Positions 3,805 to 59,895 of a DNA stretch of 64,000 bases are shown piece by piece. The stretch lies in contig JBBDUI010000002.1 in the NCBI GenBank assembly GCA_040903985.1, forward strand, positions 198,038 to 262,037, read 5' to 3'. The first letter of the stretch is position 1; every line of letters starts with the position of its first letter. The translations under genes and the position numbers were made by a program. The stretch is from Candidatus Saccharimonadales bacterium. GTDB lineage: Bacteria; Patescibacteriota; Saccharimonadia; QS-5-54-17. Under the pieces are notes generated by a model. It was given only the letters and a program-made list of their open reading frames with translations, was not told the origin of the DNA and made no database searches.

Positions 3805-4110
3805 CTTTATAAAATAAGAAAGCCCACAACAAATATGGTTGCAGGACCCCCCGCCATTGGCGGAGGAGGTACCATCCTTGCTGAGGACTTAATTTAGGTG
3901 CGGTCTCACGGGCCACGCCGTCGAGGTCTACTCGCCCCGCACCTGAAGCTTGTAACACGGCTTCAGGTGCGGGGCTTTCTGCTCGCTCCCTTCCCCCGCC
4001 CGGGCGGTAGGACACGCGGTTGATAGCCGCTTGATAGGGATTTACTCATGTAAACGTTCACTCTCTATTGTAGGTAAGACTCGCCCCTAATGCAACGGAT
4101 TTGCCCTGCG
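3805..4110 (-). promoter_or_regulatory. putative T-box riboswitch leader (Ile specifier AUC) upstream of ileS, probably acting by SD sequestration
   Basis: The minus-strand sense sequence contains an AGAGA box, a specifier-like loop ...CCCUAUCAAGCGG (AUC plus a purine), and a T-box-like AAUUAAGUCC...GGAUGGUACCUCCUCCGCC with a UGGU bulge. A CCUCC tract can pair with the AAAGGAGA SD located 7 nt before the ileS AUG. No clean U-run terminator was seen. Confidence 0.5.
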
Positions 4111-10962: not shown

Positions 10963-11712
10963 TTACCCTGTTAAGACTTCGTAGCCGGTCGGGGTGACCA
11001 ACACAGTATGCTCAAAATGCATACTCAGTGAACGATCTTGCGTACTGATAGTCCAACCGTCTGACTCCAACTGCACTTCCTTGCCTCCTAGCGTCGCCAT
11101 CGGCTCAATAGCGACCGTCATACCACTCTTGAGCGTTGGGCCTGCCCCGGCCCGCCCGTAGTTAGGAATCTCCGGATCCTCATGAACCGCATGGCCAACC
11201 CCATGGCCAACCAGATCCTCAACCACCCCAAGTCCATCGCGCAGTAAACGTCTCTGGATCGCCTGACTAATATCACCGATATGCACCCCGGGTCTCACCT
11301 GCTCGATACCGGCAAATAAGGCCTCCTCGGTGGCTCGCAGTCCCCGGCGCACTCGAGAACTAGCCTTATCGACTCCTCCCACTACCGTAGTAAAAGCACT
11401 ATCGGTAATCATCCCCTGGTAACCGACACAGAGATCGAGACTAACTAAATCATCCGCCTGCAGCTGGTAAGCTCCGGGGATGCCGTGGACTACCTGCTGG
11501 TTCACTGAGATACAGACCACGTCAGGAAAGCCATGATAGCCCAGCAGTACCGGCTCAGCATCCCGAGCGGCAATCTCTCGCCGCACGACTGCAGCCAACT
11601 CCTGAGTCGTCATCCCTGACTTTAGTTCACGCCGGGTGGCGGCAAACACCTCGTTGAGGATACGACCACTTTGACGAATAGCCTTAATCTCTTTATCTGT
11701 CTTCGGATGCAC
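10963..11712 (-). CDS. map: methionine aminopeptidase type I
   Basis: 249-aa pita-bread fold with metal ligands (D..D..H..E..E pattern, HGVGHAVHE). Confidence 0.85.
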   Translation of the reverse strand: MHPKTDKEIKAIRQSGRILNEVFAATRRELKSGMTTQELAAVVRREIAARDAEPVLLGYHGFPDVVCISVNQQVVHGIPGAYQLQADDLVSLDLCVGYQGMITDSAFTTVVGGVDKASSRVRRGLRATEEALFAGIEQVRPGVHIGDISQAIQRRLLRDGLGVVEDLVGHGVGHAVHEDPEIPNYGRAGAGPTLKSGMTVAIEPMATLGGKEVQLESDGWTISTQDRSLSMHFEHTVLVTPTGYEVLTG

Positions 11713-30519: not shown

Positions 30520-30635
<116 letters not shown>

Positions 30636-31029
30636 AATGTTGTTACAAAGACAGCACTAACATCGGTGCCTGAACTTGCAGGCCGAAAATAGCTGTAGTA
30701 ATTACTAATTAAGTTGGACGTGAATCAAAACACAAAAGACGTTGACCTATTAGTACACCTCGGCTAAACACGTTGCCGTGCGTACACCTAGTGCCTATCA
30801 AACAGGTGGTCTACCTGTGGTCTCAAACGAAACCTAGTCTTGTGGGGGGCTTCGTGCTTATATGCTTTCAGCACTTATCCCTGCCGAACGTAGCTACCCG
30901 ACACTGCCGCTGGCGCGACAATCGGTACACCAGAGGTTCGTTCACTCCGGTCCTCTCGTACTAGGAGTGACTCCGCTCAAGTTTCATCGCCCACACCGGA
31001 TATAAACCGAACTGTCTCACGACGTTCTA

Positions 31030-31078
<49 letters not shown>

Positions 31079-31088
31079 GATGCTCCTC

Positions 31089-31125
<37 letters not shown>

Positions 31126-31157
31126 AGCGCCGTCTATGTGGACTATTGGGCGCGATA

Positions 31158-31192
<35 letters not shown>

Positions 31193-31833
31193 GCGCTGCC
31201 GATACCACATTCATGTGTGTACCACGAAGGTACTAAAAACAGCGGATCACTAACTCCGACTTTCGTCCCTGTTCGGCTTGTATGCCTCACAGTCAAGCTG
31301 GCTTATGCGTTTGCACTATCATCTCGATTTCCATCCGAGACTAGCCAACCTTTGAACGCCTCCGTTACTCTTTAGGAGGCAACCGCCCCAGTTAAACTAC
31401 CCACCAGACACTGTCTCTCAGCCAGAAGCTAAGAACGATCTAATGTAAGTAATTACTAGTTTGTTGAAGTTAGGACATTTTACTCCGTATGTGTTGCTGT
31501 TTCTACATCAAAAATGTCACTAAATTCATAGTAATCACTTGATCATTCTCACCTTGTGGCTGAGATTAGAACAAAGATACACTGAGGGTGGTATTTCACT
31601 GGTGACTCCGCTCAAGCTAGCGCCTGAGCTTCAAAGTCTCCCACCTATACTGCACAAAGTGTACCCCAATCCAATGTCAAGCTGTAGTAAAGCTCCACGG
31701 GGTCTTTTCGTCCTGGTGTGGGTAGCCGGCATCTTTACCGGCAATGCAAATTCGCCGAGTCCTTCGTTGAGACAGTATTCAAATCGTTGCGCCATTCGTG
31801 CGGGTCAGAACTTACCTGACAAGGAATTTCGCT

Positions 31834-32607
31834 CAAATCTTAAGTTATATTTACTTTAGATACGCATGTTTTCTAGTGGCACGATTTCTCGCCACACCCT
31901 ATATCGCTATAGGGATCGGACTATATCTTCTCCATCTGGAGTCCGGCGTATAGTCTCTGAGGGTTCTAGTTCCGTATTTTTCGCCGATTCGTATTCGCCG
32001 CTAGTCGTCGTATCTGAACGAGACCCTCTATACTCAGATGTTCCTTTCTAGCTATCATTGCTATTACTTCACAGAAGATAATAAAATCTTGCTGTTTAGC
32101 AGTTTGTAATGGATAGACTTCAAAGAATGGAATTATCCTTTCCTGAATATCTCTAATAGATCTGACGCAGTAGCGATACAGTGGCTCACGATGGTTATCG
32201 TATCTCGTATTGACGTATATATTACCACAGCCAAAGAAAGATTGAATACTTTCTAAGACCGACAGGCTCTTAGCGCCTTGGGTTACTACAAACTCTGGAA
32301 ATACTGGATATCCAGAAAGAGTAGTAGCGTTTTTAAATACGCTGACTGCAAAACAGCCCTCCCCATCAACGAAACCGTTTATCCACCACGGATCTAGCCT
32401 TCCCTGCTGATTGTCCGCACCTGTCGCATTATTAGTTACCATATATTCAGTATACCGAACAGTATACGAACATACAATTACTAGCGCAGGATACTACAGT
32501 CCTTTTAGGACACGGGGTTTCCAGCATATAGCCAGATTTTCTTCTCGAAACCTCACACGAGAGGAAAAACGAGAAGAGGGTCATTCACCCTACTAAGGCA
32601 GCATTCT
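31834..32607 (-). mobile_element. group I-type intron in 23S rRNA (insertion between exon sequences ...GAATTTCGCT and ACCTTAGGACGG..., near E. coli position 1917), carrying a homing endonuclease ORF
   Basis: Conserved 23S exon sequence is contiguous except for about 775 nt inserted at a classical intron site. The insert encodes a LAGLIDADG protein in the rRNA sense orientation. The boundaries are ambiguous by about 2 nt. Confidence 0.8.
31966..32442 (-). CDS. LAGLIDADG homing endonuclease (single-motif, I-CreI-like size, 158 aa)
   Basis: ...LDPWWINGFVDGEGCFAVSV... is the LAGLIDADG motif. The ORF is embedded in the intron on the rRNA strand. Confidence 0.85.
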   Translation of the reverse strand: MVTNNATGADNQQGRLDPWWINGFVDGEGCFAVSVFKNATTLSGYPVFPEFVVTQGAKSLSVLESIQSFFGCGNIYVNTRYDNHREPLYRYCVRSIRDIQERIIPFFEVYPLQTAKQQDFIIFCEVIAMIARKEHLSIEGLVQIRRLAANTNRRKIRN

Positions 32608-34158
32608 ACCTTAGGACGGTTATAGTTACCGCCGCCGTTTACTGGGGCTTCAGTTCAGAGCTTGCACTCGTTCCCTTAACCTTCCAGCACTGGGCAGGCG
32701 TCAGCCCGTATACATCCACTTTCGTGTTAGCACGGACCTGTGTTTTTAGTAAACAGTCGCTTGAGTTCTTTTACTGCGGCCCTACACCCTAAAAGGGTGC
32801 GGGGCAGGCCTTATCCCGAAGTTACGGCCGTTATTTTGCCGAGTTCCTTAACGAAGGTTCTCTCGTACACCTTGGTCTACTCGACCTGAGCACCTGTGTT
32901 GGTTTGCGGTACGGTTAGCTATGTTTATACGTATCGCGTCTTTTCCGGTCGGTTTGGCTTGCGCAACTCTCCCGTAATCGGGATCGCATTCGTGCTTCAC
33001 CTCCACAAAAGTGGAAACTAGACACTTAGACAGTTATAGCCAAAAAACTGCTTGCGCTACCATACCGCACAACGCGATACAACAACATCACTAGTACGGG
33101 AATATTAACCCGTTGTCCATCGCCTACGCACTACGCCTGGGCTTAGGACCGACTAACCCTGAGATGATTACCATGGCTCAGGAAACCTTGCTCTTTCGGT
33201 GGAAAAGATTCTCACTTTTCTTATGGCTACTAATTCCAGCATTCTCACTTCCTTGCGCTCCAGCTGGCCTTCCGGCTCACCTTCAACGCTGCAAGGAACG
33301 CTCCTCTACCACTCCAGTATGAGACAAAACCTACGGTTTCATCTCAAGTTCACTTACGTTCACTGCTCTTTTTCCCTGATAGTGTATTTCACTTCGAATT
33401 TATGCGAAAATTATTCGTTCATATCTTAATCAGAAATCAATAAGCACAACTATAAGCTTAGTCTCATACTAGAGTCCGCGATTTCGGTACCAAACTTAGC
33501 CCCGTTACATTTTCCGCGCAGAATCACAATCGATTAGTGAGCTGTTACGCACTCTTTAAATGAATGGCTGCTTCTAAGCCAACATCCTAATTGTCTTTGC
33601 GACTCTACCTCGTTTCCCACTTAGTTTGGATTTAGGGACCTTAATCGGCGGTCTGGGCTGTTTCCCTTTCGAGCGCGGAGCTTAGCCCCCGCGTTCTAAC
33701 TGCTGTGCTTCCACGATCGGTATTCGTAGTTTGACAGGGATGGATACGGTTGCCCGCTCCAGACCCAATCAGAGCTCTACCTCCAACTGCTACCACACAA
33801 CGCTAGCCCTAAAGCTATTTCGAGGAGAACCAGCTATCTCCAGGTTCGATTAGCATTTCACCGCTATCCACAGGTCATCCAAACACGTTGCATTGTGTCC
33901 TGGTGCGGCCCTCCACGAACTGTTACGTCCGCTTCAGCCTGCCCATGGATAGGTCACCTGGTTTCGGGTCTACTTCATAAAACTAATTTCGCCCTATTAA
34001 GGCTCGCTTTCACTACGCCTACTCCGCTTATGCGGATTAAGCTAGCTTTATAAAGTAACTCGCTGGATCGTTCTACAAAAAGCACGCCGTCACCCCGATA
34101 AATCGGAGCTCCGACTCCTTGTAGGCACACAGTTTCAGGTCTATTTCACTCCCCTTAC

Positions 34159-34201
<43 letters not shown>

Positions 34202-34980
34202 ATCATACATCATATTTAGTCTTGGAAGGTGGACCTCCCAGATTCAGTCAGAGTTTCACGTGTTCCGACCTACTCGAGATAAAAAACATAAGGTTGCTAC
34301 GTTTTCGGATACGAGGCTTTCACTCTCTTTGGCAGTCCTTTCCAGAACTTTCTCCTAACCCAGCAATTTGTAACCTTACAGATCTATGACAGTCGATCTT
34401 CATCTCGATATCATCTCTAGCGATAACTATTTATCAACCAGAGATGATATCGAGAGTCGTCTAATATCTCACAACCCGATACAAGTATTCGCCTGTCAGC
34501 TTATTCGTGTAAGTTAATACTCGAAAACTTATATCGTTTAGACTGTTTCCCTTTCGCTCGCCACTACTGAGGAAATCGCATATGCTTTCTATTCCACCGG
34601 GTACTAAGATGTTTCAGTTCCCCAGGTTCCCTCGCACTATCCTATATATTCAGATAGCGGTGACTCTGTATTACCAGAGCCGGGTTTCCCCATTCGGACA
34701 CCCCCGGATTATAGCTCGTTTGGCAGCTCCCCGAGGCTTATCGCAGCCTACTACGTCCTTCGTCGGTGAATGTATGTCAAGGCATCCGCTGTGCGCCCTT
34801 TCTCGTCTTTTGCATTACCAAGAACTGTTGAAGTTCTTGGATTTCACACCAACTTAATTAGCAAATAGTACAGCTATTTGCTAAATGTTTGTTAACGTTC
34901 TAAGCTCCCTAAAAATGCAAAGCCTAAATGACTGCTGACCCCTATAATCGGCAATCACTTAAGCTCATAGCGCAAGCTGG

Positions 34981-35010
34981 ATTGTATCACAGGAAAATAA
35001 CGCCTGTAAA
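34981..35010 (-). promoter_or_regulatory. candidate sigma70-type promoter for 23S-5S transcription
   Basis: On the minus strand: TTTACA, an 18-nt spacer, then TACAAT. This sits about 150 nt upstream of the 23S 5' end and immediately downstream of the NOX-like gene stop. Confidence 0.5.
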
Positions 35011-35077
35011 TACCTCTGATACTTTGGTTTTTATCTTTCCCCTCATTATAGAGTGGATAGCCCTAGCCGTCCAGTAG

Positions 35078-36394
35078 CTAGAAAGAGAACTCTTCGTAGT
35101 GCAGACGATCCTCGTCGATTCCAGCAGCAACGAACTGCTTACGCAGACCGTTTAACATCGGTGGTGGACCACAGATAAAGATAGCGGCGGCCTGGATGTC
35201 CGCTCGCTGCTGTAGCAACTCTAAATTCATGAATCCCTCCCGCTCCTCACAGATGTGGTGCATTCGAAAGCCGGCATGGCGCTTAGCCACTGCGGTTAGC
35301 TCCGTATGAAATAAGGCGTCGGTGTCTGACTTAGTACAGTAGAAGAAGTCGATATCGTACCGCAGCTTATCCGGAAAACTCCGCACCATACTGAGGAACG
35401 GCGTGATACCGATGCCACCGGCGATCCAGATCTGACGACGACTAGTTGAGTTGAGATAACTAAAATTGCCATATGGGCCGTCGACAATAGCTCGGACGCC
35501 AGGATGCACCTCCCCGATCTTAGCCGTGTAATCCCCCAAATTTTTAACGACGAAGCCAAGCTGACGATCGTGACGGCTCGAGCTAAAGGAGAACGGATGC
35601 GCCTCTCGTTGTACCGCAGCATCCCGCATACTCAAGTAGCCGAACTGACCCGGTCGAAAACTGACCGGATGCCAGCTCGGCTGCAGAATAATCTCAGTGA
35701 TGTCTTCCCCCAGATGGTTAACCGCCTCTACCCGGTAAGGGTACTTTTTAGTTAACCATTCTCCCAGAACCGAATGATACAGATAACTGAGAGCACCGAT
35801 GAATGTCACGATCAGCATATACCGCCGTAAAGCCGGGTTATCCAGAAGATGACCGCTAGCTAGGAAGGTGTGCAGGGCGGCCGGTACCAACAACAGCCCC
35901 AGTAAACGGTGAACCGTCAAAAAGGTTTGATATGGTAGTTTATACAACACTGTCGCTGTTAAGAGAGCGGCCATGCCCAAGAAAGCGATTACTCCCCATG
36001 TAACCACCGCGTCGACCCCCGGTACCCACATTCGCAGTGCTCCCAGTGGAGCGCTCATAGCGATAGCCGCTGTGATCGCTACAGCGTGTACGGCAATGGC
36101 GATAAAGCTATAGCTACCAAAGATACGATGTGCCTTATAGGCCTTATCTAAACCAAGAAAGAGCTTATCAATCGATTTCAGTCGCGCCCCCAACACCAAC
36201 GACCACATAAAGCTAGCGAAACCGGTAAATGCCCCCACTTTAGCCACGACAGTTAAGCCATGGCGGAGAGTTGACACCTCACCGATTAGCTCGGGCAGCC
36301 TAAGCCACAGGTAAAGCGGTATGATAAGGGCGACGCTCAGACTGACACTCCAGCCCAGGCTACGTCGCAATCGATTCCGTATATCTTCTCTCAT
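35078..36394 (-). CDS. ferric reductase/NADPH-oxidase-like (NOX/FRE family) flavocytochrome: 6-TM ferric-reductase domain fused to FAD- and NAD(P)H-binding domains
   Basis: His-containing TM helices, an FAD-binding HPFSFSS motif, NADPH-binding GGIGITPF, and CGPPPM. Confidence 0.7.
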   Translation of the reverse strand: MREDIRNRLRRSLGWSVSLSVALIIPLYLWLRLPELIGEVSTLRHGLTVVAKVGAFTGFASFMWSLVLGARLKSIDKLFLGLDKAYKAHRIFGSYSFIAIAVHAVAITAAIAMSAPLGALRMWVPGVDAVVTWGVIAFLGMAALLTATVLYKLPYQTFLTVHRLLGLLLVPAALHTFLASGHLLDNPALRRYMLIVTFIGALSYLYHSVLGEWLTKKYPYRVEAVNHLGEDITEIILQPSWHPVSFRPGQFGYLSMRDAAVQREAHPFSFSSSRHDRQLGFVVKNLGDYTAKIGEVHPGVRAIVDGPYGNFSYLNSTSRRQIWIAGGIGITPFLSMVRSFPDKLRYDIDFFYCTKSDTDALFHTELTAVAKRHAGFRMHHICEEREGFMNLELLQQRADIQAAAIFICGPPPMLNGLRKQFVAAGIDEDRLHYEEFSF

Positions 36395-36415
36395 TAAGCT
36401 GTATTATGGCATATC

Positions 36416-36445
36416 ATAACGCCTGTCGCTAGCGACAGGCGTTAT
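36416..36445. terminator. perfect palindromic hairpin (CATAACGCCTGTCGC-TAGC-GACAGGCGTTATG) between convergent or adjacent genes, probably a terminator
   Basis: 14-bp perfect arms located between the 36473 stop and the 36394 start. Confidence 0.5.
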
Positions 36446-36472
36446 GATGCTTTGACCGAATCCAAACTGATA

Positions 36473-37327
36473 CTAGGCGGGACCGGTAGTTGGCAGCTGC
36501 TCTGGACCGGTGGTTGGAATCGCTTCCGGTTCAGGCTCTGGTTCTGGCACCGGCTCAGGCTCGGGCTCGGGTTCCGGTTCAGGCTGAGCTGCGACTATTA
36601 CTAGCTCGCTAGAGCTATCGTTTTGCCCCTGCAGCACTCCGTTATCGGCTGTGGCCGTCACATTATACGTGCCGGCTGCCAGTTCCTGCGTTATCTCTAC
36701 GGACCATGTACCATCAACCGCTAATTCGGCTTCATACTCTTCGCCATCTACCAAAACTGTCACAGTAGCCTCTGGGTCATCTACTGTACCGGTTACTGTC
36801 GGAGTAGCATCCTCAGTCTCAATCCCGTCAACCTCTACCTCGATCACCTCTGGCTCTGAGTCTGGAGTGGCTACCGGCTCTTGGACAGTCGGCCCCTCTG
36901 AGCTAGCATCACTCCAAAAGAAGTACCAGCCCGCACCGCCCAACGCTACTAATAAGATAAGAGCACTAAGCGCAATTAAGATCCACTTGTGCGACTGAGA
37001 TGGCTGCTCCATATAAGCACCCGTATTATTAGCTCCAGTTTGGAGTGGAAAGCTCGAGGACTGAGATTGATCTAGGCGGGATGAAACGTCACCATTAGCA
37101 GATGAGGCGCCATATGCTGCCGGGTCACCCATGGTTTGATCTGTGCTTGACTCGGCAAAGCGATCTGGACCAGCTAAATTAACTTCGGCTGGATTAGCCG
37201 CCGGAAGTGGGCTGGTGTCAAAGCTGGTATCGACCGGTGGTGTTACTCCTGGAGACGGGGGCGACGTATTAGGAACATCCGGGGTGGCTGCTGCTGGTTG
37301 TGGCAAATCTGGTTTTTCTTCTGGCAT
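36473..37327 (-). CDS. membrane-anchored low-complexity protein: Pro-rich N-terminus, single TM, Ig-like/acidic domain, (PE)n repeat, C-terminus ...LPTTGPA
   Basis: TM segment WILIALSALILLVALGGAGWYFFW, PEPEPEPEPEPVPEPEPEPE, and a terminal LPTTG with no following hydrophobic tail. Confidence 0.5.
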   Translation of the reverse strand: MPEEKPDLPQPAAATPDVPNTSPPSPGVTPPVDTSFDTSPLPAANPAEVNLAGPDRFAESSTDQTMGDPAAYGASSANGDVSSRLDQSQSSSFPLQTGANNTGAYMEQPSQSHKWILIALSALILLVALGGAGWYFFWSDASSEGPTVQEPVATPDSEPEVIEVEVDGIETEDATPTVTGTVDDPEATVTVLVDGEEYEAELAVDGTWSVEITQELAAGTYNVTATADNGVLQGQNDSSSELVIVAAQPEPEPEPEPEPVPEPEPEPEAIPTTGPEQLPTTGPA

Positions 37328-37472
37328 ATTGAACTCTTTTTATATTATTAGTTTTTATTTCTAACTTCTATACTTACGTTCAACTATATACGTAAGCGGA
37401 TTGCCTTGTCAAGCTCTAGGTCGCTATCGCCACGAGTTGGCGACATTTTTTGTTTTGTGGGACAATAACAGC

Positions 37473-38015
37473 ATGAGAAAGCTAACCACCTACTTCATTA
37501 AAGGGCTGCTCTTCCTTCTGCCGATCTTACTGGTTATTACCCTAGTGCGAGAACTGTTCTCCATCGTCTTGCCTACAGGGGTGGGATTCATAAGCGGCGT
37601 AACTACTCTCGGCATAGCTATCCTAATTACTACTCTCGTCGGAGCTGTAATAACTGGCGGACTTCAGCCTTACTTTAAACGCAGAGCTCTCCGTGGCCTG
37701 GGCAAGTTCCCCTTTCTGAACCAGATATTTACCTCAATGAAACGGTTTGTACTAATCCTCAACTTCTCCCGGGAAATATTTGAAAACCCGGTTATAGTAA
37801 CCCGCGAGGAAGGTCGTGAGATAAAATTCGGCTTTGTAACTCGCTCAGGTCTGGAGCAGTTTGGTCTCAGCCAGCACTCTAGTGTCTATCTGCCCGATCC
37901 ATTCTCCTTCTTAGGCGAGATGGTAGTGGTAGCTAACAAAGACTTGAGGCCAGTAGAAGGGAAACGATCAGAGGTATCGAACTTCATCTTATCCGGGGGA
38001 CTAGTACAGAAATAA
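37473..38015 (+). CDS. DUF502-family membrane protein
   Basis: About 180 aa from the internal Met (MRKLTTYFIKGLLFLLPILLVITLV...), with two N-terminal TM segments and a conserved C-terminal domain typical of COG2928/DUF502. Confidence 0.55.
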   Translation: MRKLTTYFIKGLLFLLPILLVITLVRELFSIVLPTGVGFISGVTTLGIAILITTLVGAVITGGLQPYFKRRALRGLGKFPFLNQIFTSMKRFVLILNFSREIFENPVIVTREEGREIKFGFVTRSGLEQFGLSQHSSVYLPDPFSFLGEMVVVANKDLRPVEGKRSEVSNFILSGGLVQK

Positions 38016-38110
38016 AGACGCATTTGCGCCTGCACCATACAGATGCGCCCGAGGAGTAGGGCTTCGAAGGTCTACCGCCTGGGTCTGATCTGGTCGGTTC
38101 TCAAGTATAT

Positions 38111-38162
38111 TCTCCACCAAGAAAAGAGTCCGGCTGACGCCGAGACTCTTTTCTTGGTGGAG
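38111..38162. repeat. 20-bp perfect inverted repeat (TCTCCACCAAGAAAAGAGTC ... GACTCTTTTCTTGGTGGAGA) overlapping the 3' CCA end of tRNA-Ala
   Basis: It can form a long hairpin incorporating the tRNA 3' terminus. This may be a processing or termination element. Confidence 0.6.
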
Positions 38163-38231
38163 ATGGAGGGACTCGAACCCTCGACCCCCTGCTTGCAAAG
38201 CAGGTGCTCTAGCCAACTGAGCTACATCCCC
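38155..38231 (-). tRNA. tRNA-Ala (anticodon TGC), CCA encoded
   Basis: Sense sequence GGGGATGTAGCTCAGTTGGCTAGAGCACCTGCTTTGCAAGCAGGGGGTCGAGGGTTCGAGTCCCTCCATCTCCACCA gives a cloverleaf with a CTTTGCAAG anticodon loop. Confidence 0.92.
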
Positions 38232-38304
38232 ATGCTTGAGTAATTTTAAAGGTATGGCTACCCCTAAGCACGTACCAGAGTATACAATAAATATAATCGT
38301 AAAA

Positions 38305-38541
38305 CTATATTCTCGGCTCTAGCTTTTCCCAGAAAGCCTCGGCCCGTACTTGATAGCCGCGACTATTAGGATGAAACCAATCAGCTGCATAATCAAGCAG
38401 GGGGTTAAGCTTGCCCCTAGTCGCCTCATATAGCGGAACGAAGACCAGGCCATTTTCAGCGGCAGCAAGTCTTATTATCCGGCTAGCTGATTCTGCCTTC
38501 TGATTAGTCTTACTGCTGCCGAAGCTAGGCACACCAGCCAT
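38305..38541 (-). CDS. short ORF resembling the C-terminal block of an SGNH/GDSL hydrolase (DxxH motif); possible gene fragment
   Basis: ...DYAADWFHPNSRGYQVRAEAFW... resembles SGNH block V. It is only 78 aa long. Confidence 0.35.
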   Translation of the reverse strand: MAGVPSFGSSKTNQKAESASRIIRLAAAENGLVFVPLYEATRGKLNPLLDYAADWFHPNSRGYQVRAEAFWEKLEPRI

Positions 38542-38801
38542 TACAAGATGTCGCTGGCAAGCGTCGACTGGCCGTCGCCCTTGATCGCCGCCTTGAGTTC
38601 GTCCAGTGTCGTGGCGGCCTCGACGGCGGCGAGGAGCTCAGCTCGTGGGTCTGGTCGCGTGGCGATCGCCTCGTCATAGGCAGCCTGCAACGTAGTTTCG
38701 TCCGGCTCGTCGCCGTGGACGGTCAACGTCTCACCTACCTTTGTGTAGGCGATGCCGAGATGGGCTAGGGCGCACTTGCGCTGTGTGGTGTCCAATGCCA
38801 T
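38541..38801 (-). CDS. hypothetical protein, very G+C-rich, translationally coupled to the upstream tail-fibre-like gene
   Basis: 86-aa ORF whose start overlaps the stop of the 38801-40129 gene. G+C is far above the window average. Confidence 0.45.
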   Translation of the reverse strand: MALDTTQRKCALAHLGIAYTKVGETLTVHGDEPDETTLQAAYDEAIATRPDPRAELLAAVEAATTLDELKAAIKGDGQSTLASDIL

Positions 38802-40129
38802 CAGGAACGTACCTCCGTGAGTGTCATCAGCGCCCCCGCTATGATAGATGACTCCACATTTGGTGACCCGGTCGGCCAGGGGCCGTGCTCTAGACGGTAG
38901 GTACGGGTGGCCGTCGATCCCGGTTCGTGCTCGCCTTCGAGCGCAATCGGGGAGTAGAACGTGGCCGTTTCGCTGGACGATGCAAGCAGACGGTGACCAC
39001 GACGCTCGTTGGTGACCACCTCGTCGCCAGTCGTGTCGCGGATTTGCACGACACCGTTGCGGTTAATCGAGCTACCGGACACCACCGAGTAAGTAACCTG
39101 TCCCGAAACGCGGGCGAGGATGATCGAATCGGCGTACGCTGGCATGATCGTGGCTTCGAGACCGGAGTCTTGCGGCGTGTCGGCGGTAGTGTCCGAGTCG
39201 CTACCCAAGGTCGCAGTGACGACCTGCACCACAGACGCACTACTCCCAATCGCCTGATCATGCTCGGTGATGGCTTGTTGGACATTTACGGCTGTGGTGT
39301 GTTCCAGGCCGGTCGGGTCAAACTCGATGTTGGTAGCTGGGTGGGCGTCTGCTACGGCCTCATGATTAGTGATAGCTGTAGTAGCGGTACCGGCAGGATC
39401 AGCTCCTACATCACTGGCATCCAGAGAAACAATACCGGTATCACCGTTGACAGACTGGACGGGGGCTTCGGCTGCTGTGATGAAGGTAGCGGAGTGAGCT
39501 TCATTACCATGCTCGGTTGGAGTACGGGTAGCACTGGCATCATCTAGGGTGGCATCACTAATCTTGGCGTTGAGGGCAGCTAGGGTGGTAGCACTGTGTT
39601 CGATACCACCTAGTGAGTGACCTTTCGGTACTTGGGGGTCGGCTAGTTCGCCGGAGAGGCCATCGACGTTCAGTTCATCAGTTCCGCCGGATTGGTGGGT
39701 GGTGGTGTGGTTAGCTACATCACTAGCATCTAGAGTTACTGCTCCGGTCTTAGAGTTGATGCTTAGTACGGGGGCAATAGCAGCTACCCAGGTGCTAGTG
39801 CCACTATCGTAGGTTAAGACATCTTGATCACTGGCAGTATCGGTATCGGTATCATCTAGGGCGGCTAGAGAGGAGCCGACACCTGGGAGTCCATCAACAT
39901 AGGCTTTAGTGACGGCGTCTTGAGGGGTGGTAGGGTTGGCTAGTCCGACAATCTTGTTTCCGCCTAGGGATAGCTCTCCGCCCATAGTATCGCCACTGCG
40001 GTTGAGCTTCTGAGTTAGCTCAGTACCACGTTTGAGGGAGCCATCACTAGCTAGTTCGACACTGAGGTATTCGTTGAGGATGTCTCCCCATGTTCCTTCG
40101 TCTGATCCGGGGATTGGTAGTCGTGGCAT
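38801..40129 (-). CDS. phage tail-fibre-like protein
   Basis: The N-terminus has the classical tail-fibre motif ...SGDTMGGELSLGGNKIVGLANPTTPQDAVTKAYVDG.... Repeats SINSKTGAVTLDASDV and SVNGDTGIVSLDASDVGA follow. The 3' half and the downstream ORF are much more G+C-rich than the window, which suggests a chimeric or foreign origin. Confidence 0.65.
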   Translation of the reverse strand: MPRLPIPGSDEGTWGDILNEYLSVELASDGSLKRGTELTQKLNRSGDTMGGELSLGGNKIVGLANPTTPQDAVTKAYVDGLPGVGSSLAALDDTDTDTASDQDVLTYDSGTSTWVAAIAPVLSINSKTGAVTLDASDVANHTTTHQSGGTDELNVDGLSGELADPQVPKGHSLGGIEHSATTLAALNAKISDATLDDASATRTPTEHGNEAHSATFITAAEAPVQSVNGDTGIVSLDASDVGADPAGTATTAITNHEAVADAHPATNIEFDPTGLEHTTAVNVQQAITEHDQAIGSSASVVQVVTATLGSDSDTTADTPQDSGLEATIMPAYADSIILARVSGQVTYSVVSGSSINRNGVVQIRDTTGDEVVTNERRGHRLLASSSETATFYSPIALEGEHEPGSTATRTYRLEHGPWPTGSPNVESSIIAGALMTLTEVRS

Positions 40130-40231
40130 TATACTTTAGCTTCAATGTTTAGTTGCTATGTACCCAATATAGAGTGGTTGTGGTTATCTGGCAACTGGTG
40201 GGAGGTGGGAGTTATTATCGATTGGGGTCAT

Positions 40232-40262
40232 CCGGGACTCGAACCTGAGGCCTCGTCATTAG
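40232..40262 (-). pseudogene. degenerate partial copy of a tRNA 3' half (T-arm GGTTCGAGTCC plus part of the anticodon stem)
   Basis: GGGACTCGAACCTGAGGCCTCGTCATTAG parallels GTGGACTCGAACCACGGACCTCGTCATTATCAG of the adjacent tRNA-Ile. It cannot fold into a full tRNA. Confidence 0.6.
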
Positions 40263-40305
40263 GTCTCGCTTTGCTCGATAAAGCATAATAATTTTTCAAT
40301 CCAAA

Positions 40306-40383
40306 TGGTGGGGCTGCGTGGACTCGAACCACGGACCTCGTCATTATCAGTGACGCGCTCTAACCAGACTGAGCTACAGCCCC
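40306..40383 (-). tRNA. tRNA-Ile (anticodon GAT), CCA encoded
   Basis: Sense sequence GGGGCTGTAGCTCAGTCTGGTTAGAGCGCGTCACTGATAATGACGAGGTCCGTGGTTCGAGTCCACGCAGCCCCACCA. Confidence 0.92.
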
Positions 40384-40410
40384 TCCATTTGGATTGAATT
40401 ATAAAAGTAC

Positions 40411-40560
40411 GAAACAGTGACGCGCTCTAACCGGGCTGAGCTAATCGCCCTCCAGCTGTATTTTACTATCTTCAGAATACACAGTGACGCACACTAGCTG
40501 GGCAGCTGTGTCCGCCATAGCCCCCAAGCGACGGCGGAAGCTAATCGCCCCTATAAAAGC
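40411..40560 (-). repeat. two tandem, progressively degenerate copies of the tRNA-Ile 5' half plus its upstream flank (remnants)
   Basis: Positions 40414-40460 match the tRNA 5' half: CAGTGACGCGCTCTAACC identical, then ...GCTGAGCTAATCGCCCTCCA. Positions 40478-40560 repeat ACAGTGACGC... and ...GCTAATCGCCCCTATA with an internal insertion. Confidence 0.65.
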
Positions 40561-40718
40561 ACACCTTATTGTAACCAGAAATCACCTCCTGGGGCAAGTC
40601 GGAATTACTGGTATCGATATTATTTATGTTTAGTAGTCATTTAAACAACAATCACCCTGTCATTCGACAGGGTGATTGTTTGTAGCTTTAAGTGCTTAGA
40701 CTGTGCAGCATAACCAAC

Positions 40719-40848
40719 CCCGCACCTGAGATGCAGGCAATAGCATAAGCTATTGCGACTCGGCTAGCCCTAACTTTCTAATGAAATAGCTAGGAACTAG
40801 TTACAGCTAAAGTTCTTGCGAACTTTACTGCATTTCAGGTGCGGGGCC
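40719..40848 (-). ncRNA. structured spacer element downstream of 16S: 19-bp long-range stem enclosing two hairpins (candidate processing element or small RNA)
   Basis: CCCCGCACCTGAGATGCAG at 40719-40737 pairs with CTGCATTTCAGGTGCGGGG at 40830-40848. Internal hairpins are GCAATAGC-ATAA-GCTATTGC and CTAGC...GCTAG. Confidence 0.4.
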
Positions 40849-40959
40849 GACCTTGGGATCTATCACTAACTCGACCCTTCGTTCCCACCAATGGCGGGAC
40901 CTTATCTTCGAGCGTAATAGGTCTAGTTTCGATTATTAATCGAAACGGTTTTCCCTAGA

Positions 40960-42445
<1,486 letters not shown>

Positions 42446-57126: not shown

Positions 57127-59895
57127 TTAGAGTTCAAGTTCGGCGTCAAGGTCCTGTTTCACCACTGTAGCAATCTGCTGCAACCGCTGCTGGATATCCT
57201 GCTCATTCAAAGTCTTGGCGTGAGCCTGCAGCTCTAGATGAACCGTAATCACTCGACCAGACTCCCGTTGAAACTCGTCCTGATAGGTGACGACCACGTC
57301 CTCTACCTGAGATAGGCTAACAGCCAACTGCTGCCAAGTGACTTTATCTGGCACCATGACGGCTATATCCCGGTAACTGCTTTGATACCGTGGTAACGGC
57401 TCAAACCGCGCCGACTGCCATAGCTCTAGCAGTCGCACCACGTCGAGCTCGACCACTGCTACCGCATTGCGTAATTTCTGATTCTGCATAATTTTTGAAT
57501 GCAGTTCGCCGTAACAGCCGATCGCTACCCCGTCCACCTCAAGTGTCACTTGGCGAGCTGGGTGCAAGCTTGGATTGTCATGGCTGGTAACGAACTGAGG
57601 GGTGATCTGCAGTAAGCGCATAATCTGGTCGATATCACTCTTTACCCGCAGACGAGCCTCATCCTGCTGCCAGGCTAGGGCTAGCATCGTGTGCTCCAGT
57701 GGCAGCATCTCATCTGAGCGCGGCGTATAGGTACGGGCGATTTCAAATACGCCAAAGTTATCCTTATATGTAGTATTATCTACTACGGCTTTCAACAAGG
57801 TAGGTAGTAAACTCTGCCGCAAATAGGCCTGCTCCTGACTACGAGGATTTTTCAACTTCAGGTGGTTTTGGCCGGTAATCTTGTAGTTGGCTAGGTCGAC
57901 CTCGCTGATGAACGGATAGGTCGTCACCTCAAATAGACCCCGACCCCGCAAGAGCTGACGCAACTCATTTAGTCGACTCCAGTAGTGATCGACTAAACCC
58001 TTCTCCTTTGGTCTCCAGGCAGGCAAAGTGGCCTCGAGATTATCCAGTCCGTATAGCTTAATCACCTCTTCAGCGATGTCGGCCTCGTCACGCAAATCAG
58101 GTCGCCACCAAGGAGCTGTCACTTGCACATACTGCTCTAGGTCACCTACATAACGGCGAGCTCCCAAAAACTGGCTATCCTGGCTCATCTGTTCTAGTGA
58201 TAACTCTACTACCTGTTGTTCCTCGACCGGTAGCTCTTCCCACTCATCAGCTTGATTACGCACATTGTTACGGGCATCAATGATCTTACCTTCACCGATA
58301 TAGAGCGCTACATGTGAAACTCCCTCGCGTTCGACCTCATCTAGTTGAACCCAGGGGCCACCCCGGAAGACGAGATCACCAGGACGCAAATCAGCCAGCT
58401 CCACCGCGGTACCACTCGTATACTGAGCATGAGCTGTATGGCCGATCTTAATCCCAATCAACGAGTAGATATAGTCCACTAGATACGAGCAGTCGAAAGC
58501 TTTAACCCCATCGGTCTTAAAGCTGGCACCCAACTTATACGGTTTAGCGAGGTGCTTACGAGCTTCTAGGGCAATATCGAACGGCTCGGCATCGATCTGG
58601 AGATGACGCAGGTAGTCGGACACCTCCTCACGCTCTAACTTCACTCCCAATAGCTGTTGCAGGCGAGGAGACCGGACACCTATATGCTGGACCCAGGGCC
58701 AGATGTTCAATTCATTCTGGTATGCTGTCAGCTCGGCTCCAGCATACTCCTGCAGTAGATGTACCGCGTAACGTAGCGCGGGACGAACGGCCTGTACCGG
58801 TAAACCACGCTCAAACCGAGCACTTGCCTCAGTTCTTAGGCCGTGGCGCTTAGCCGACTTACGTACTAGTACATCCGAGAAAGTAGCGGCCTCGACTAGT
58901 ATCTCCTGCGTATTATCACCGATTTCAGCCGTCTCACCCCCCATAATTCCAGCTAGTGCGACTGGGTGCTTACCACTGGCTACCACTATATCCTCGCTAG
59001 CTAAGGCTCGCTTTACTCCATCCAGAGTCGTTAGTACTTCGCCGTTGGTAGCAAAACGTAGCGTCAGCGGACCCTTCACTTGAGCCGCATCGAAAGCATG
59101 CAGAGGTTGGCCGGTCTCAAGCATCACATAATTTGTAACATCGACTACGACATTAATGGGGCGGACCCCCGCTAGGCGCAGCCGGCGTTGCATCCAGGGT
59201 GGTGAAGCAGCGACTTTTTGCGGAAGCTTAAGCTTAAGTAAGCCATAGCAGGACACTTCCTCTTTAGCTTGATTAGTAAATAAATTAGTAACCCGCTGAC
59301 CGGCAGGTGGCGCCTGGACTATCTGCTCGATTAAATCTGTAGCCGGAGTGTGAGCGGCCACCTCCCGAGCTAAGCCGACATAACTCTGGAGGTCCCAGCG
59401 ATTAGCGGCCGTCTTAATATCGACTACGCTCTGCTCAGCATTAAAAACTTCACGCAAAGGCAGGTCGGCCGCTACCTCAGTACCGAGATCAAGCAGACCC
59501 TCATGACTACCGCCTAGCCCCAGCTCCAACTCACTACATAGCATACCGTAGGAATCGTGACCGCGGATCTTGGCTTGAGTAATCTCAGTTCCGTCAGGCA
59601 GCACAGCCCCTAATTGAGCGAAAACCACTCGCTGCCCTACGTAAAGGTTTGGAGCGCCACATACTACCTGATACTTCTTACTACCCGATTTGACGGTCGC
59701 TACCTGCAACCGATCGGCGTTGGGATGTGGTTTGACCTCTACTACGGTGGCGGTAACGATACGAGAATCAAACTCTGGTGGCTGGATCACCTCCTCTACT
59801 TCTATACCGGCCCGCTCCAGTGCCGCCACCATCTCCGCTACTCCTAACGGCTCACTAAGGTGTTGATTTAGCCATTCACTCACTATCTTCACCAT
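57127..59895 (-). CDS. pheT: phenylalanyl-tRNA synthetase beta subunit carrying an inserted NlpC/P60 (papain-like cysteine peptidase) domain
   Basis: N-terminal tRNA-binding domain, B3/B4 (TAANRWDL...) and B5 (WWRPDL...EEVIKLYGLDNL). Within B5 there is a roughly 150-aa insert: ...KAFDCSYLVDYIYSLIGIKIGHTAHAQY...PGDLVFRGG...VSHVALYIGEGKIIDARN. Confidence 0.9.
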   Translation of the reverse strand: MVKIVSEWLNQHLSEPLGVAEMVAALERAGIEVEEVIQPPEFDSRIVTATVVEVKPHPNADRLQVATVKSGSKKYQVVCGAPNLYVGQRVVFAQLGAVLPDGTEITQAKIRGHDSYGMLCSELELGLGGSHEGLLDLGTEVAADLPLREVFNAEQSVVDIKTAANRWDLQSYVGLAREVAAHTPATDLIEQIVQAPPAGQRVTNLFTNQAKEEVSCYGLLKLKLPQKVAASPPWMQRRLRLAGVRPINVVVDVTNYVMLETGQPLHAFDAAQVKGPLTLRFATNGEVLTTLDGVKRALASEDIVVASGKHPVALAGIMGGETAEIGDNTQEILVEAATFSDVLVRKSAKRHGLRTEASARFERGLPVQAVRPALRYAVHLLQEYAGAELTAYQNELNIWPWVQHIGVRSPRLQQLLGVKLEREEVSDYLRHLQIDAEPFDIALEARKHLAKPYKLGASFKTDGVKAFDCSYLVDYIYSLIGIKIGHTAHAQYTSGTAVELADLRPGDLVFRGGPWVQLDEVEREGVSHVALYIGEGKIIDARNNVRNQADEWEELPVEEQQVVELSLEQMSQDSQFLGARRYVGDLEQYVQVTAPWWRPDLRDEADIAEEVIKLYGLDNLEATLPAWRPKEKGLVDHYWSRLNELRQLLRGRGLFEVTTYPFISEVDLANYKITGQNHLKLKNPRSQEQAYLRQSLLPTLLKAVVDNTTYKDNFGVFEIARTYTPRSDEMLPLEHTMLALAWQQDEARLRVKSDIDQIMRLLQITPQFVTSHDNPSLHPARQVTLEVDGVAIGCYGELHSKIMQNQKLRNAVAVVELDVVRLLELWQSARFEPLPRYQSSYRDIAVMVPDKVTWQQLAVSLSQVEDVVVTYQDEFQRESGRVITVHLELQAHAKTLNEQDIQQRLQQIATVVKQDLDAELEL

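Follow-up and report, generated by a model that had tools for sequence, protein, structure and literature searches.

What history is recorded by several broken copies of a tRNA gene packed closely around a single intact one? This question is raised by a 64,000-nucleotide stretch of DNA (the window; GenBank assembly GCA_040903985.1, contig JBBDUI010000002.1) from Candidatus Saccharimonadales bacterium, whose lineage, the Saccharibacteria, belongs to the ultra-small bacteria of the candidate phyla radiation (CPR). In the single rRNA operon of the window, on the minus strand, the only intact tRNA-Ile gene is surrounded by partial tRNA-Ile copies, an arrangement referred to here as the nest. An initial annotation, made from the sequence of the window, had noticed partial copies on both sides of the gene and regarded them as scars of repeated site-specific integration and excision or as products of slipped duplication. 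The reading favoured here, with a probability of roughly two in three, is that older tRNA-Ile genes were split in their anticodon loop by the serial, homing-like insertion of self-contained replacement tRNA cassettes. All coordinates are window coordinates, all features of the nest lie on the minus strand, and L-numbers are labels of comparison loci from CPR genomes and metagenomes. Read 5' to 3' on the minus strand, the nest consists of the following parts, a 17-nt leader separating the first from the second:

40568-40597, minus strand: promoter-like site (TTGCCC-18-TACAAT; 9/12 in a consensus scan), 17 nt upstream of copy 2; its position and flank align with those of the related locus L003
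40482-40550, minus strand: copy 2, what remains of the 5' part of the original gene, at its ancestral position (repeat search, sequence)
40451-40481, minus strand: S2, the 31-nt leader of the first inserted unit, homologous to S1 and of equal length
40415-40450, minus strand: copy 1, the complete 36-nt 5' half (positions 1-34) of the previous tRNA-Ile (nhmmer, E = 9e-11)
40384-40414, minus strand: S1, the 31-nt leader of the inserted unit (inverted repeat; minimum free energy (MFE) fold)
40306-40383, minus strand: tRNA-Ile(GAT), the sole intact one (ARAGORN; 72.9 bits with the Rfam tRNA model)
40262-40305, minus strand: y, the 44-nt trailer of the inserted unit (inverted repeat; MFE fold; sequence)
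40223-40261, minus strand: 3' half from T36 (TAATGACGAGG...), derived from the same displaced gene as copy 1 (nhmmer, E = 7e-8)
40192-40222, minus strand: tentative rudiment of the 3' part of the original gene (sequence inspection; too short for statistical support)

Judging by its match to the consensus, the promoter-like site probably drives the whole nested unit.

The partial copies are genuine. As the initial annotation had stated, two 5' halves lie upstream of the intact gene (repeat search; nhmmer for copy 1) and a degenerate 3' half lies downstream of it. Copy 1 belongs to the native Saccharimonadales type (GGGCGAT...), and its last position is exactly G34 (...GCGTCACTG). The near-identity to the intact gene that had been described over 18 nt is a real match, but copy 1 is in fact a complete 5' half, identical to the intact gene at 30 of 36 positions. 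A 4-nt 5' flank had also been assigned to all the 5' copies; the flank TGGA is common to copy 1 and the intact gene but is not found at copy 2. The latter is indeed the more diverged copy and carries an insertion. It is composed of GGGCGATTAGCT (40539-40550), a 28-nt hairpin insert (TCCGCC...GGCGGA, 40511-40538), a degenerate 20-nt D-arm (40491-40510) and GCGTCACTG (40482-40490), and it is truncated after G34, just as copy 1 is. A similar TCCGCC...GGCGGA hairpin is carried by L026 at the position equivalent to this insert. The 3' half agrees with the intact gene at 28 of 39 positions and is degenerate, with two mismatches in the acceptor stem (ATGACCC, formerly ATCGCCC) and one in the T-stem. 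In the tentative rudiment (ATCGATAATAAC...CCCACCAGTTG), ATCGATAATAAC (compare CTGATAATGAC) is followed by TCCCACC twice and by AGTTG (compare GCCCACCAGT in L003); its CCCACCAGT is also present in the end and trailer of the L003 tRNA, and the 7-nt duplication was reported by Tandem Repeats Finder. These repeats align far above chance: the degenerate half-tRNA patterns each have exactly two matches in the window against 0.00 expected (100 shuffles), and GCGTCACTG occurs four times against 0.41 expected. Elsewhere in the 64 kb, half-tRNA profiles (nhmmer) gave no significant further fragment of tRNA-Ile, nor any of tRNA-Ala.

The two inner fragments fit together. Removal of 40262-40414 in silico, which joins copy 1, an A and the 3' half, yields a sequence that ARAGORN recognises as a tRNA-Ile(gat) cloverleaf. 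Because the joined halves restore this cloverleaf, the 153 nt between them, comprising S1, the intact gene and y, were inserted into a native-type gene at its anticodon loop. The junctions read CTG/TTTCG and GACC/TAATG (a forward slash indicates the junction), with no direct repeat and no duplicated core. The outer halves are expected to be pseudogene relics, so that only the innermost gene gives a working tRNA.

The corresponding empty site is found in close relatives. A scan of one genome per species yielded seven CPR loci with this type of tRNA-Ile, the closest of which, L003, has a 16S rRNA gene 96.98% identical to that of the window over 1390 nt. In L003, the 16S gene is followed by 182 nt, a single clean tRNA-Ile (GGGCGAT...ATCGCCC), 12 nt and tRNA-Ala. 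The 5' half of this tRNA-Ile matches copy 1 at 35 of 37 positions, and its 3' half matches the 3' fragment at 28 of 32. L002, with 91% 16S identity, is likewise clean, and copy 1 is identical to its tRNA-Ile at 35 of 36 positions. As L003, at 97% 16S identity, possesses just one clean gene, the fragments of the nest are the halves of displaced older genes around an inserted gene. The site is filled in the window and empty in L003 and L002, and the same junction was used in both layers of the nest and in L026. The order of the layers can be read from the flanks: the 60 nt upstream of the L003 tRNA-Ile align with the flank of copy 2 (z = 4.6), not with that of copy 1 (z = -0.6) or of the intact gene (0.8). 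As the L003 flank aligns with the flank of copy 2 only, copy 2 marks the original gene and copy 1 is part of an earlier insert.

The innermost gene is of foreign origin. It is 78 nt long, encodes its CCA end and has the acceptor stem GGGGCTG/CAGCCCC, which differs from the native GGGCGAT/ATCGCCC in four of seven pairs, on both strands. Because the dead copy 1 is nearly unchanged while the live gene has four altered acceptor pairs, the intact gene was imported whole. Its leader and trailer form an inverted repeat with 22-nt arms (95% complementary) and, since they match each other, arrived together. Within this repeat, a 14-bp stalk prolongs the acceptor stem; its 5' arm lies in S1 (40385-40398, TTCAATCCAAATGG) and its 3' arm in y and the encoded CCA (40295-40308, CCATTTGGATTGAA), and the first bases of S1, GUUUCGU, pair with the last bases of y, GCGAGAC. 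The insert is a complete, self-sufficient gene unit. A homologous cassette is present in the metagenomic locus L026, with the same GGGGCTG tRNA at the same junction inside a GGGCGAT...ATCGCCC gene. The trailer ends are homologous (cgagcaaagcgagacc in the window, cgaacaaagtgagagtc in L026), and 14 of 15 stalk pairs are kept, four having changed on both sides and a fifth from C-G to G-T.

The first inserted unit was a relative of the second. S1 and S2, both 31 nt long, are identical at 16 of 31 positions, against 8.8 +/- 2.4 in shuffles (P = 0.004). As the leaders are homologous and of equal length, and both junctions lie after G34, the nest contains two related units, one inside the other at the same position. 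Two other routes to this arrangement were considered and rejected. After a two-step partial replacement, of the 5' type and then of the 3' type, the displaced 3' fragment would have the new acceptor strand, which it does not; and self re-invasion as the origin of both layers conflicts with leaders that differ by 48% while copy 1 is almost unchanged.

The two leaders also bear on slipped duplication. According to this explanation, slippage or unequal crossover triplicated a 67-nt unit (leader plus 5' half) in place and the 3' half was duplicated separately, followed by divergence. The repeat search does return a three-copy family with start-to-start spacings of 67 and 67 nt, which are also the distances between the three ...GCGTCACTG ends; moreover, the two leaders are equal in length and 52% identical, and a 7-nt tandem duplication lies nearby. 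However, Tandem Repeats Finder reports no 67-nt array, and the leaders have diverged by 48% whereas copy 1 is still 95-97% identical to the functional genes of relatives. A single duplication with neutral decay is excluded because these two values are incompatible. It is also the functional copy, not the dead one, that has the divergent acceptor stem, and the 97% 16S relative has none of the nest. The 5' and 3' fragments break at one anticodon-loop position, as expected for an insertion and not for independent duplications, and two other loci, L004 and L006, contain the same cassette within different outer genes. Slipped duplication, as suggested by the initial annotation, is therefore a highly improbable origin of the nest.

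A further possibility is that the half-tRNA segments belong to the spacer transcript as conserved elements with a function of their own, for example as a processing scaffold. The MFE fold of 40185-40460 comprises the outer anticodon stem, a junction helix, the stalk and the inner cloverleaf (z = -4.2), and the region as a whole folds as a coherent nested structure (z = -4.2 and -3.1). Compensatory changes in the stalk and the intact anticodon-stem parts in all outer fragments would also suit a functional RNA. Such a structure is nevertheless missing from the relatives with 97% and 91% 16S identity, so that the segments are not conserved in all relatives. The outer pieces contain mismatches, a hairpin insertion and deletions, and these are not the same in the window as in L026. 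The stalk, for its part, goes with the inner gene unit and is also found at loci free of fragments, and no Rfam family other than tRNA matches. Among the explanations considered, a functional RNA is the least credible.

Similar nests recur in other CPR bacteria. A metagenome scan provided at least 120 further tRNA-Ile loci, and recurrence was counted on 125 sampled loci (0.86 Mb), in which all called tRNAs were masked and both strands were searched for half fragments. Fragments occur in 18 of the 125 loci, seven of which have both the 5' and the 3' kind; among the species-representative genomes, three of seven are affected (L004, L006 and L008). The 27 significant half fragments of tRNA-Ile are without exception on the same strand as the intact gene, 5' halves upstream of it and 3' halves downstream (27/27; P = 6e-17), and the distance to the intact gene is at most about 120 nt, except for one weak, distant match on the opposite strand. 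The tRNA-Ala(TGC) genes of the same loci, which served as a control, have no fragments (0/74; Fisher P = 1.4e-4). An arrangement of this kind is also seen at a few genes for tRNA-Phe and tRNA-Pro. In L075, a tRNA-Pro gene has an identical 3' fragment 33 nt downstream, and in L121 a tRNA-Phe gene is followed by a degenerate second copy.

The loci L004 and L006 are particularly instructive. Their inner tRNAs are identical (78/78) and their trailers agree at 35 of 39 positions up to the junction, while their outer genes differ (acceptor 3' strands CATGCCC and ATCGCC) and their flanks are unrelated. At the level of sequence comparison, a cassette that recurs within different outer genes in this way is characteristic of a unit moving between genomes, and the same nested layout across CPR suggests a mobile tRNA cassette. 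No publication describing nested or disrupted tRNA genes in CPR was found in the searchable literature, which is incomplete.

The initial annotation was right in regarding the spot as a hotspot, of recombination or of insertion. Its choice of integration and excision scars is less well founded. In this classical explanation, tyrosine integrases repeatedly inserted phages or islands at the anticodon loop of tRNA-Ile, leaving attachment (att) scars after later deletion of the islands. The copies are in direct orientation, and their breakpoints fall in the anticodon loop, which is known as a sublocation used by integrases (Williams 2002, cited in PMC9897764). The polarity, with 3' fragments downstream and 5' fragments upstream, would fit as well, as would a foreign-looking gene block of 2 kb just downstream (38232-40191) and the nested locus L009, which lies on a contig called viral by IMG/VR and bearing phage-like genes. 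On the other hand, the gaps to the intact gene measure just 31 and 44 nt, and across the 0.86 Mb of loci the fragments stay within about 120 nt of the intact gene, one weak distant match excepted. No integrase, transposase or phage gene was found by Pfam among the approximately 50 open reading frames (ORFs) of the window; for the 112 ORFs located within 4 kb of 23 other nests, the first 25 of 78 families, as listed, include no integrase or transposase family common to two or more ORFs. With this scope, the Pfam searches in the window and near the other nests yielded nothing but housekeeping genes. Direct repeats and duplicated cores are absent from the junctions, and the intact gene is no chimera of host and element, as both of its acceptor strands are new. 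The complementarity of leader and trailer would call for two independent islands with matching ends, and the 2-kb block lies outside the outermost 3' rudiment. Altogether, att scars are very unlikely here.

One may also imagine that no dedicated element or nuclease was involved, and that DNA of other CPR cells was captured on single occasions by illegitimate or homology-facilitated recombination at accidental breaks. A tRNA-Ile core of about 50 nt that is identical across very different CPR lineages would provide a universal homology anchor, the nest of the window contains no enzyme gene, and duplications of the 3' or the 5' part only (L009, L085 and L125) could stem from crossovers in different arms. 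One-off capture is still unlikely in view of the junction after G34 and the homologous 31-nt leaders in both layers and in L026, the strict polarity (27/27), the lack of fragments at the equally conserved tRNA-Ala genes (0/74) and the presence of GIY-YIG genes exactly in the gap in two loci.

These GIY-YIG genes provide the candidate enzyme. In L085, an ORF assigned to GIY-YIG by Pfam exactly fills the gap between the intact tRNA-Ile and the displaced 3' half, and its stop codon is the TAA of TAATGACG. In L093, a GIY-YIG ORF (11134-11574, minus strand) separates a 5' part of tRNA-Phe from the intact tRNA-Phe gene, and in L022 such an ORF adjoins a tRNA-Ile nest. Small free-standing GIY-YIG ORFs also occur between tRNA genes in CPR tRNA clusters (L084, L112, L066 and L093). 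A protein search for homologues of the L085 ORF returned the query alone.

Evidence of RNA splicing at the nest was looked for as well. Between 38000 and 41000, no Rfam match to a ribozyme was obtained at E <= 1, including the model Intron_gpI, and tRNA was the sole Rfam family matched. As a positive control, Intron_gpI finds a group I intron in the anticodon loop of a tRNA-Phe in L054 (2506-2818, minus strand; 80.6 bits). A bulge-helix-bulge motif was not found at the junctions in the inspected MFE fold, in which the anticodon stem leads into a 2 x 4 internal loop and then a 7-bp helix, with no 3-nt bulges spaced by 4 bp.

The history proposed for the nest begins with an original gene, represented by copy 2 and perhaps by the rudiment at 40192-40222, which would have been located 17 nt downstream of the promoter-like site, as in L003. 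A first unit, consisting of S2 and a GGGCGAT-type tRNA, would then have entered this gene after G34. In the third step, a second and related unit of 153 nt (S1, the GGGGCTG-type tRNA and the 44-nt trailer) would have entered the first unit at the same position, leaving copy 1 and the 3' fragment as its flanks. The usual enzymes of tRNA end processing would free the inner tRNA from the transcript. The sequences show that genes are nested, in which order the layers came, that the intact gene is foreign, that a relative has the site empty, and that such nests recur with one polarity. Behind these steps, we infer a unit that is mobile as such, a homing mechanism and an enzyme. A clean fixed-site insertion in a conserved gene, with empty and filled alleles in relatives, works in the manner of intron homing, and the nest would represent a new form of homing-type mobile DNA, with GIY-YIG as the conjectured enzyme. 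Homologous repair, with the highly conserved tRNA halves serving as arms, could transfer a copy of the filled allele to an intact tRNA-Ile gene after a double-strand break made by a small GIY-YIG endonuclease; the latter is the probable trigger because such genes lie in or beside some nests. Since the inserted gene recreates the target site, re-invasion would be possible and could give rise to Russian-doll layers. Since this tRNA gene is presumed to be essential and present only once, an insertion could survive only if it brought a spare gene along.

Several points weigh against the serial insertion of replacement cassettes, or at least against parts of it. The public contig L001 (GCA_040876815.1, JBBDOY010000001.1) is 100% identical to the window over 34069-41040 and probably belongs to the same data set, and thus is no independent sample. 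The metagenomic loci were chosen by their tRNA-Ile pattern, which means that prevalence figures such as 18 of 125 are not unbiased. Breakpoints elsewhere vary (D-loop, 26/27, C32, G34 and A35), and outer copies often have extra GC-rich hairpins; more than one process may therefore be at work. Strong stalks between leader and trailer are also present at many tRNA-Ile loci that have no fragments, so the stalk has to be considered a part of the gene's processing unit and not a proof of mobility. The two-layer reading rests mainly on the 5' side, because little of the older layer is present on the 3' side and that part is degenerate. The inner gene has the same anticodon-arm sequence as the displaced genes, which leaves the escape of the filled allele from re-cutting unexplained. 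As for the enzyme, the whole 64-kb window has no GIY-YIG ORF and the nest has no endonuclease gene in or near it, and GIY-YIG is associated with just two of about 24 nested tRNA-Ile loci, L093 being a tRNA-Phe locus; since so few nests have GIY-YIG, the enzyme is a conjecture. Finally, no donor of the GGGGCTG cassette was found in viral, phage and plasmid collections: BLAST searches of the phage and plasmid collections with the cassette as query detected generic tRNA similarity only, and the sole match in a scan of viral contigs was L009, the nested locus on the contig called viral by IMG/VR.

The surroundings of the nest comprise housekeeping genes, among them gyrA/B, pheST, an ileS-like gene, ftsAZ and infB (Pfam, window ORFs). 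The remaining RNA genes of the operon, taken from the ARAGORN/Rfam annotation, are:

40959-42443, minus strand: 16S rRNA
38155-38231, minus strand: tRNA-Ala(TGC)
30731-34812, minus strand: 23S rRNA
30525-30632, minus strand: 5S rRNA

The spacer between the 16S and 23S genes (34813-40958) amounts to 6.1 kb and contains protein-coding ORFs for a ferric-reductase-like protein, an immunoglobulin-like (Ig-like) surface protein, a DUF502 protein and others. In L003 and L002, the spacer between tRNA-Ala and the 23S gene is long as well, and that of L003 is weakly similar to the Ig-like gene. Owing to these long ORF-bearing spacers in the window and in L003 and L002, the rRNA genes look effectively unlinked in this lineage. 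Relative to L003, in which 12 nt separate tRNA-Ile from tRNA-Ala, the block at 38232-40191 is an insertion of 2.07 kb. It has its own promoter-like site (40166-40194), an 86-aa ORF, a truncated SGNH-hydrolase ORF and a gene for a glycine-rich, tail-fibre-like protein of 442 aa, of which a paralog with 71% identity exists elsewhere in the genome (L132). The idea that the 442-aa neighbour is phage cargo was rejected, as the 71% identical paralog has a non-phage context and the gene lies outside the nest. Between 41040 and 41895, L001 differs from the window by 38 mismatches and 4 gaps, all of which fall within the 16S gene, whereas the whole spacer is identical; this part of the 16S gene was probably assembled from mixed strains.

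Further insertions and hairpins were noted in the same DNA. The 3' end of tRNA-Ala, including its CCA, pairs with its own trailer in a 20-bp hairpin (38111-38163) that resembles the leader-trailer stalks of tRNA-Ile. The 23S gene exceeds the Rfam model by about 1.16 kb and encloses an ORF for a LAGLIDADG endonuclease (31966-32442, minus strand; Pfam E = 3e-24); no group I intron model scored above the gathering threshold in this insertion. In the beta chain of phenylalanyl-tRNA synthetase (57127-59895, minus strand), an NlpC/P60 peptidase domain (residues 451-545) is found between the usual domains. Two hairpins, at 40718-40846 and 3934-3975, have the common stem GCCCCGCACCTGA; the first is 129 nt long and is not present at the equivalent spacer position of L003. 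In L103 and L122, the 9-mer CCCCGCACC and its complement GGTGCGGGG occupy the junctions that surround the inner tRNA-Ile; in L064 and L009, they lie next to this gene. Hairpins of the CCCCGCACC type may form a family of small palindromic inserts in CPR. A high-copy family resembling repetitive extragenic palindromic (REP) elements, with CCCCGCACC termini, was rejected, because the window has just two such hairpins.

Should the insertion of replacement cassettes be confirmed, it would add a third strategy by which a mobile insertion persists in an essential gene. Introns and inteins remove themselves by splicing, integrating elements rebuild the part of the gene that they displace, and the insert described here would bring a whole spare gene. 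It would also explain how tRNA genes with a foreign acceptor stem replace native ones in genomes presumed to hold a single copy, that is, the horizontal replacement of a core translation gene, and would assign to the many small GIY-YIG proteins encoded in CPR genomes a definite target that can be tested. The nested layers record the order of invasion and could serve to date transfers among uncultured lineages. For annotation, the nests are a warning not to take tRNA half-genes in the rRNA operons of CPR bacteria as marking the boundaries of prophages.

Which known systems come closest to such a cassette? The att scars in tRNA genes (tDNA), as collected in the Islander database and discussed in PMC9897764, share with the nest a direct-orientation partial copy beside an intact gene, a breakpoint in the anticodon loop and repeated hits at one site. 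The islands in the tDNA examples of PMC9897764 measure approximately 9-23 kb and 121 kb, whereas the nest has no island, integrase or repeated core, and its gaps are 31 and 44 nt, not kilobases. Moreover, att scars result from the replacement of one half of the gene; in the nest, the two halves of the old gene have been moved symmetrically to either side of a complete foreign gene.

Archaeal intron-containing, split and tri-split tRNA genes (Fujishima and Kanai, as mentioned in PMC10714607) resemble the nest in having insertions in tRNA loops (D-loop, anticodon loop, T region) and complementary sequences at the junctions, and transposition between tRNAs has been proposed for the archaeal introns. 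They differ from the nest, whose junctions have no bulge-helix-bulge and whose outer exons are degenerate. To our knowledge, bacteria have no corresponding splicing endonuclease. The intervening sequences (IVS) of bacterial rRNA genes are stem-closed modules. Like the cassette, they are inserts at a helix tip of a structural RNA gene in the rRNA operon and are found sporadically among relatives. Such an insert is probably removed from the transcript without religation. The modelled geometry of the nest would fit a stem-closed insert of this kind. In the nest, however, the host molecule is a tRNA, which does not work in pieces, and the insert has a full gene.

Mobile group I introns occupy the anticodon loops of some bacterial tRNA genes, such as tRNA-Leu and tRNA-fMet of cyanobacteria and tRNA-Ile of Azoarcus. 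They have in common with the cassette the target in the anticodon loop, the presence or absence among close relatives and the lack of a target duplication. The cassette differs in that Rfam finds no ribozyme in it and that 153 nt are too short for one. Group I introns also splice the host gene, whereas the spare gene inside the insert rescues the function here and the host gene is left dead. The phage T4 protein SegB is a free-standing GIY-YIG homing endonuclease encoded in a tRNA gene cluster (PMC2330249). It is comparable to the small GIY-YIG ORFs between CPR tRNA genes (L084, L093 and L112) or between an intact tRNA and a fragment (L085 and L093). By analogy, SegB-like break repair with co-conversion of the neighbouring sequence would explain how a cassette is copied. 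A difference is that the nest of the window is without an endonuclease gene, and cleavage by the CPR proteins is putative. We know of no case in which SegB homing splits a tRNA gene or leaves nested halves.

A tentative and rather doubtful extension of these comparisons is a new class of selfish element in CPR, a "spare-carrying" homing cassette that would consist of a tRNA gene and its processing stalk and be mobilised by GIY-YIG. Instead of splicing itself out, such a cassette would enter the anticodon loop of the resident tRNA gene, kill the resident and replace its function.

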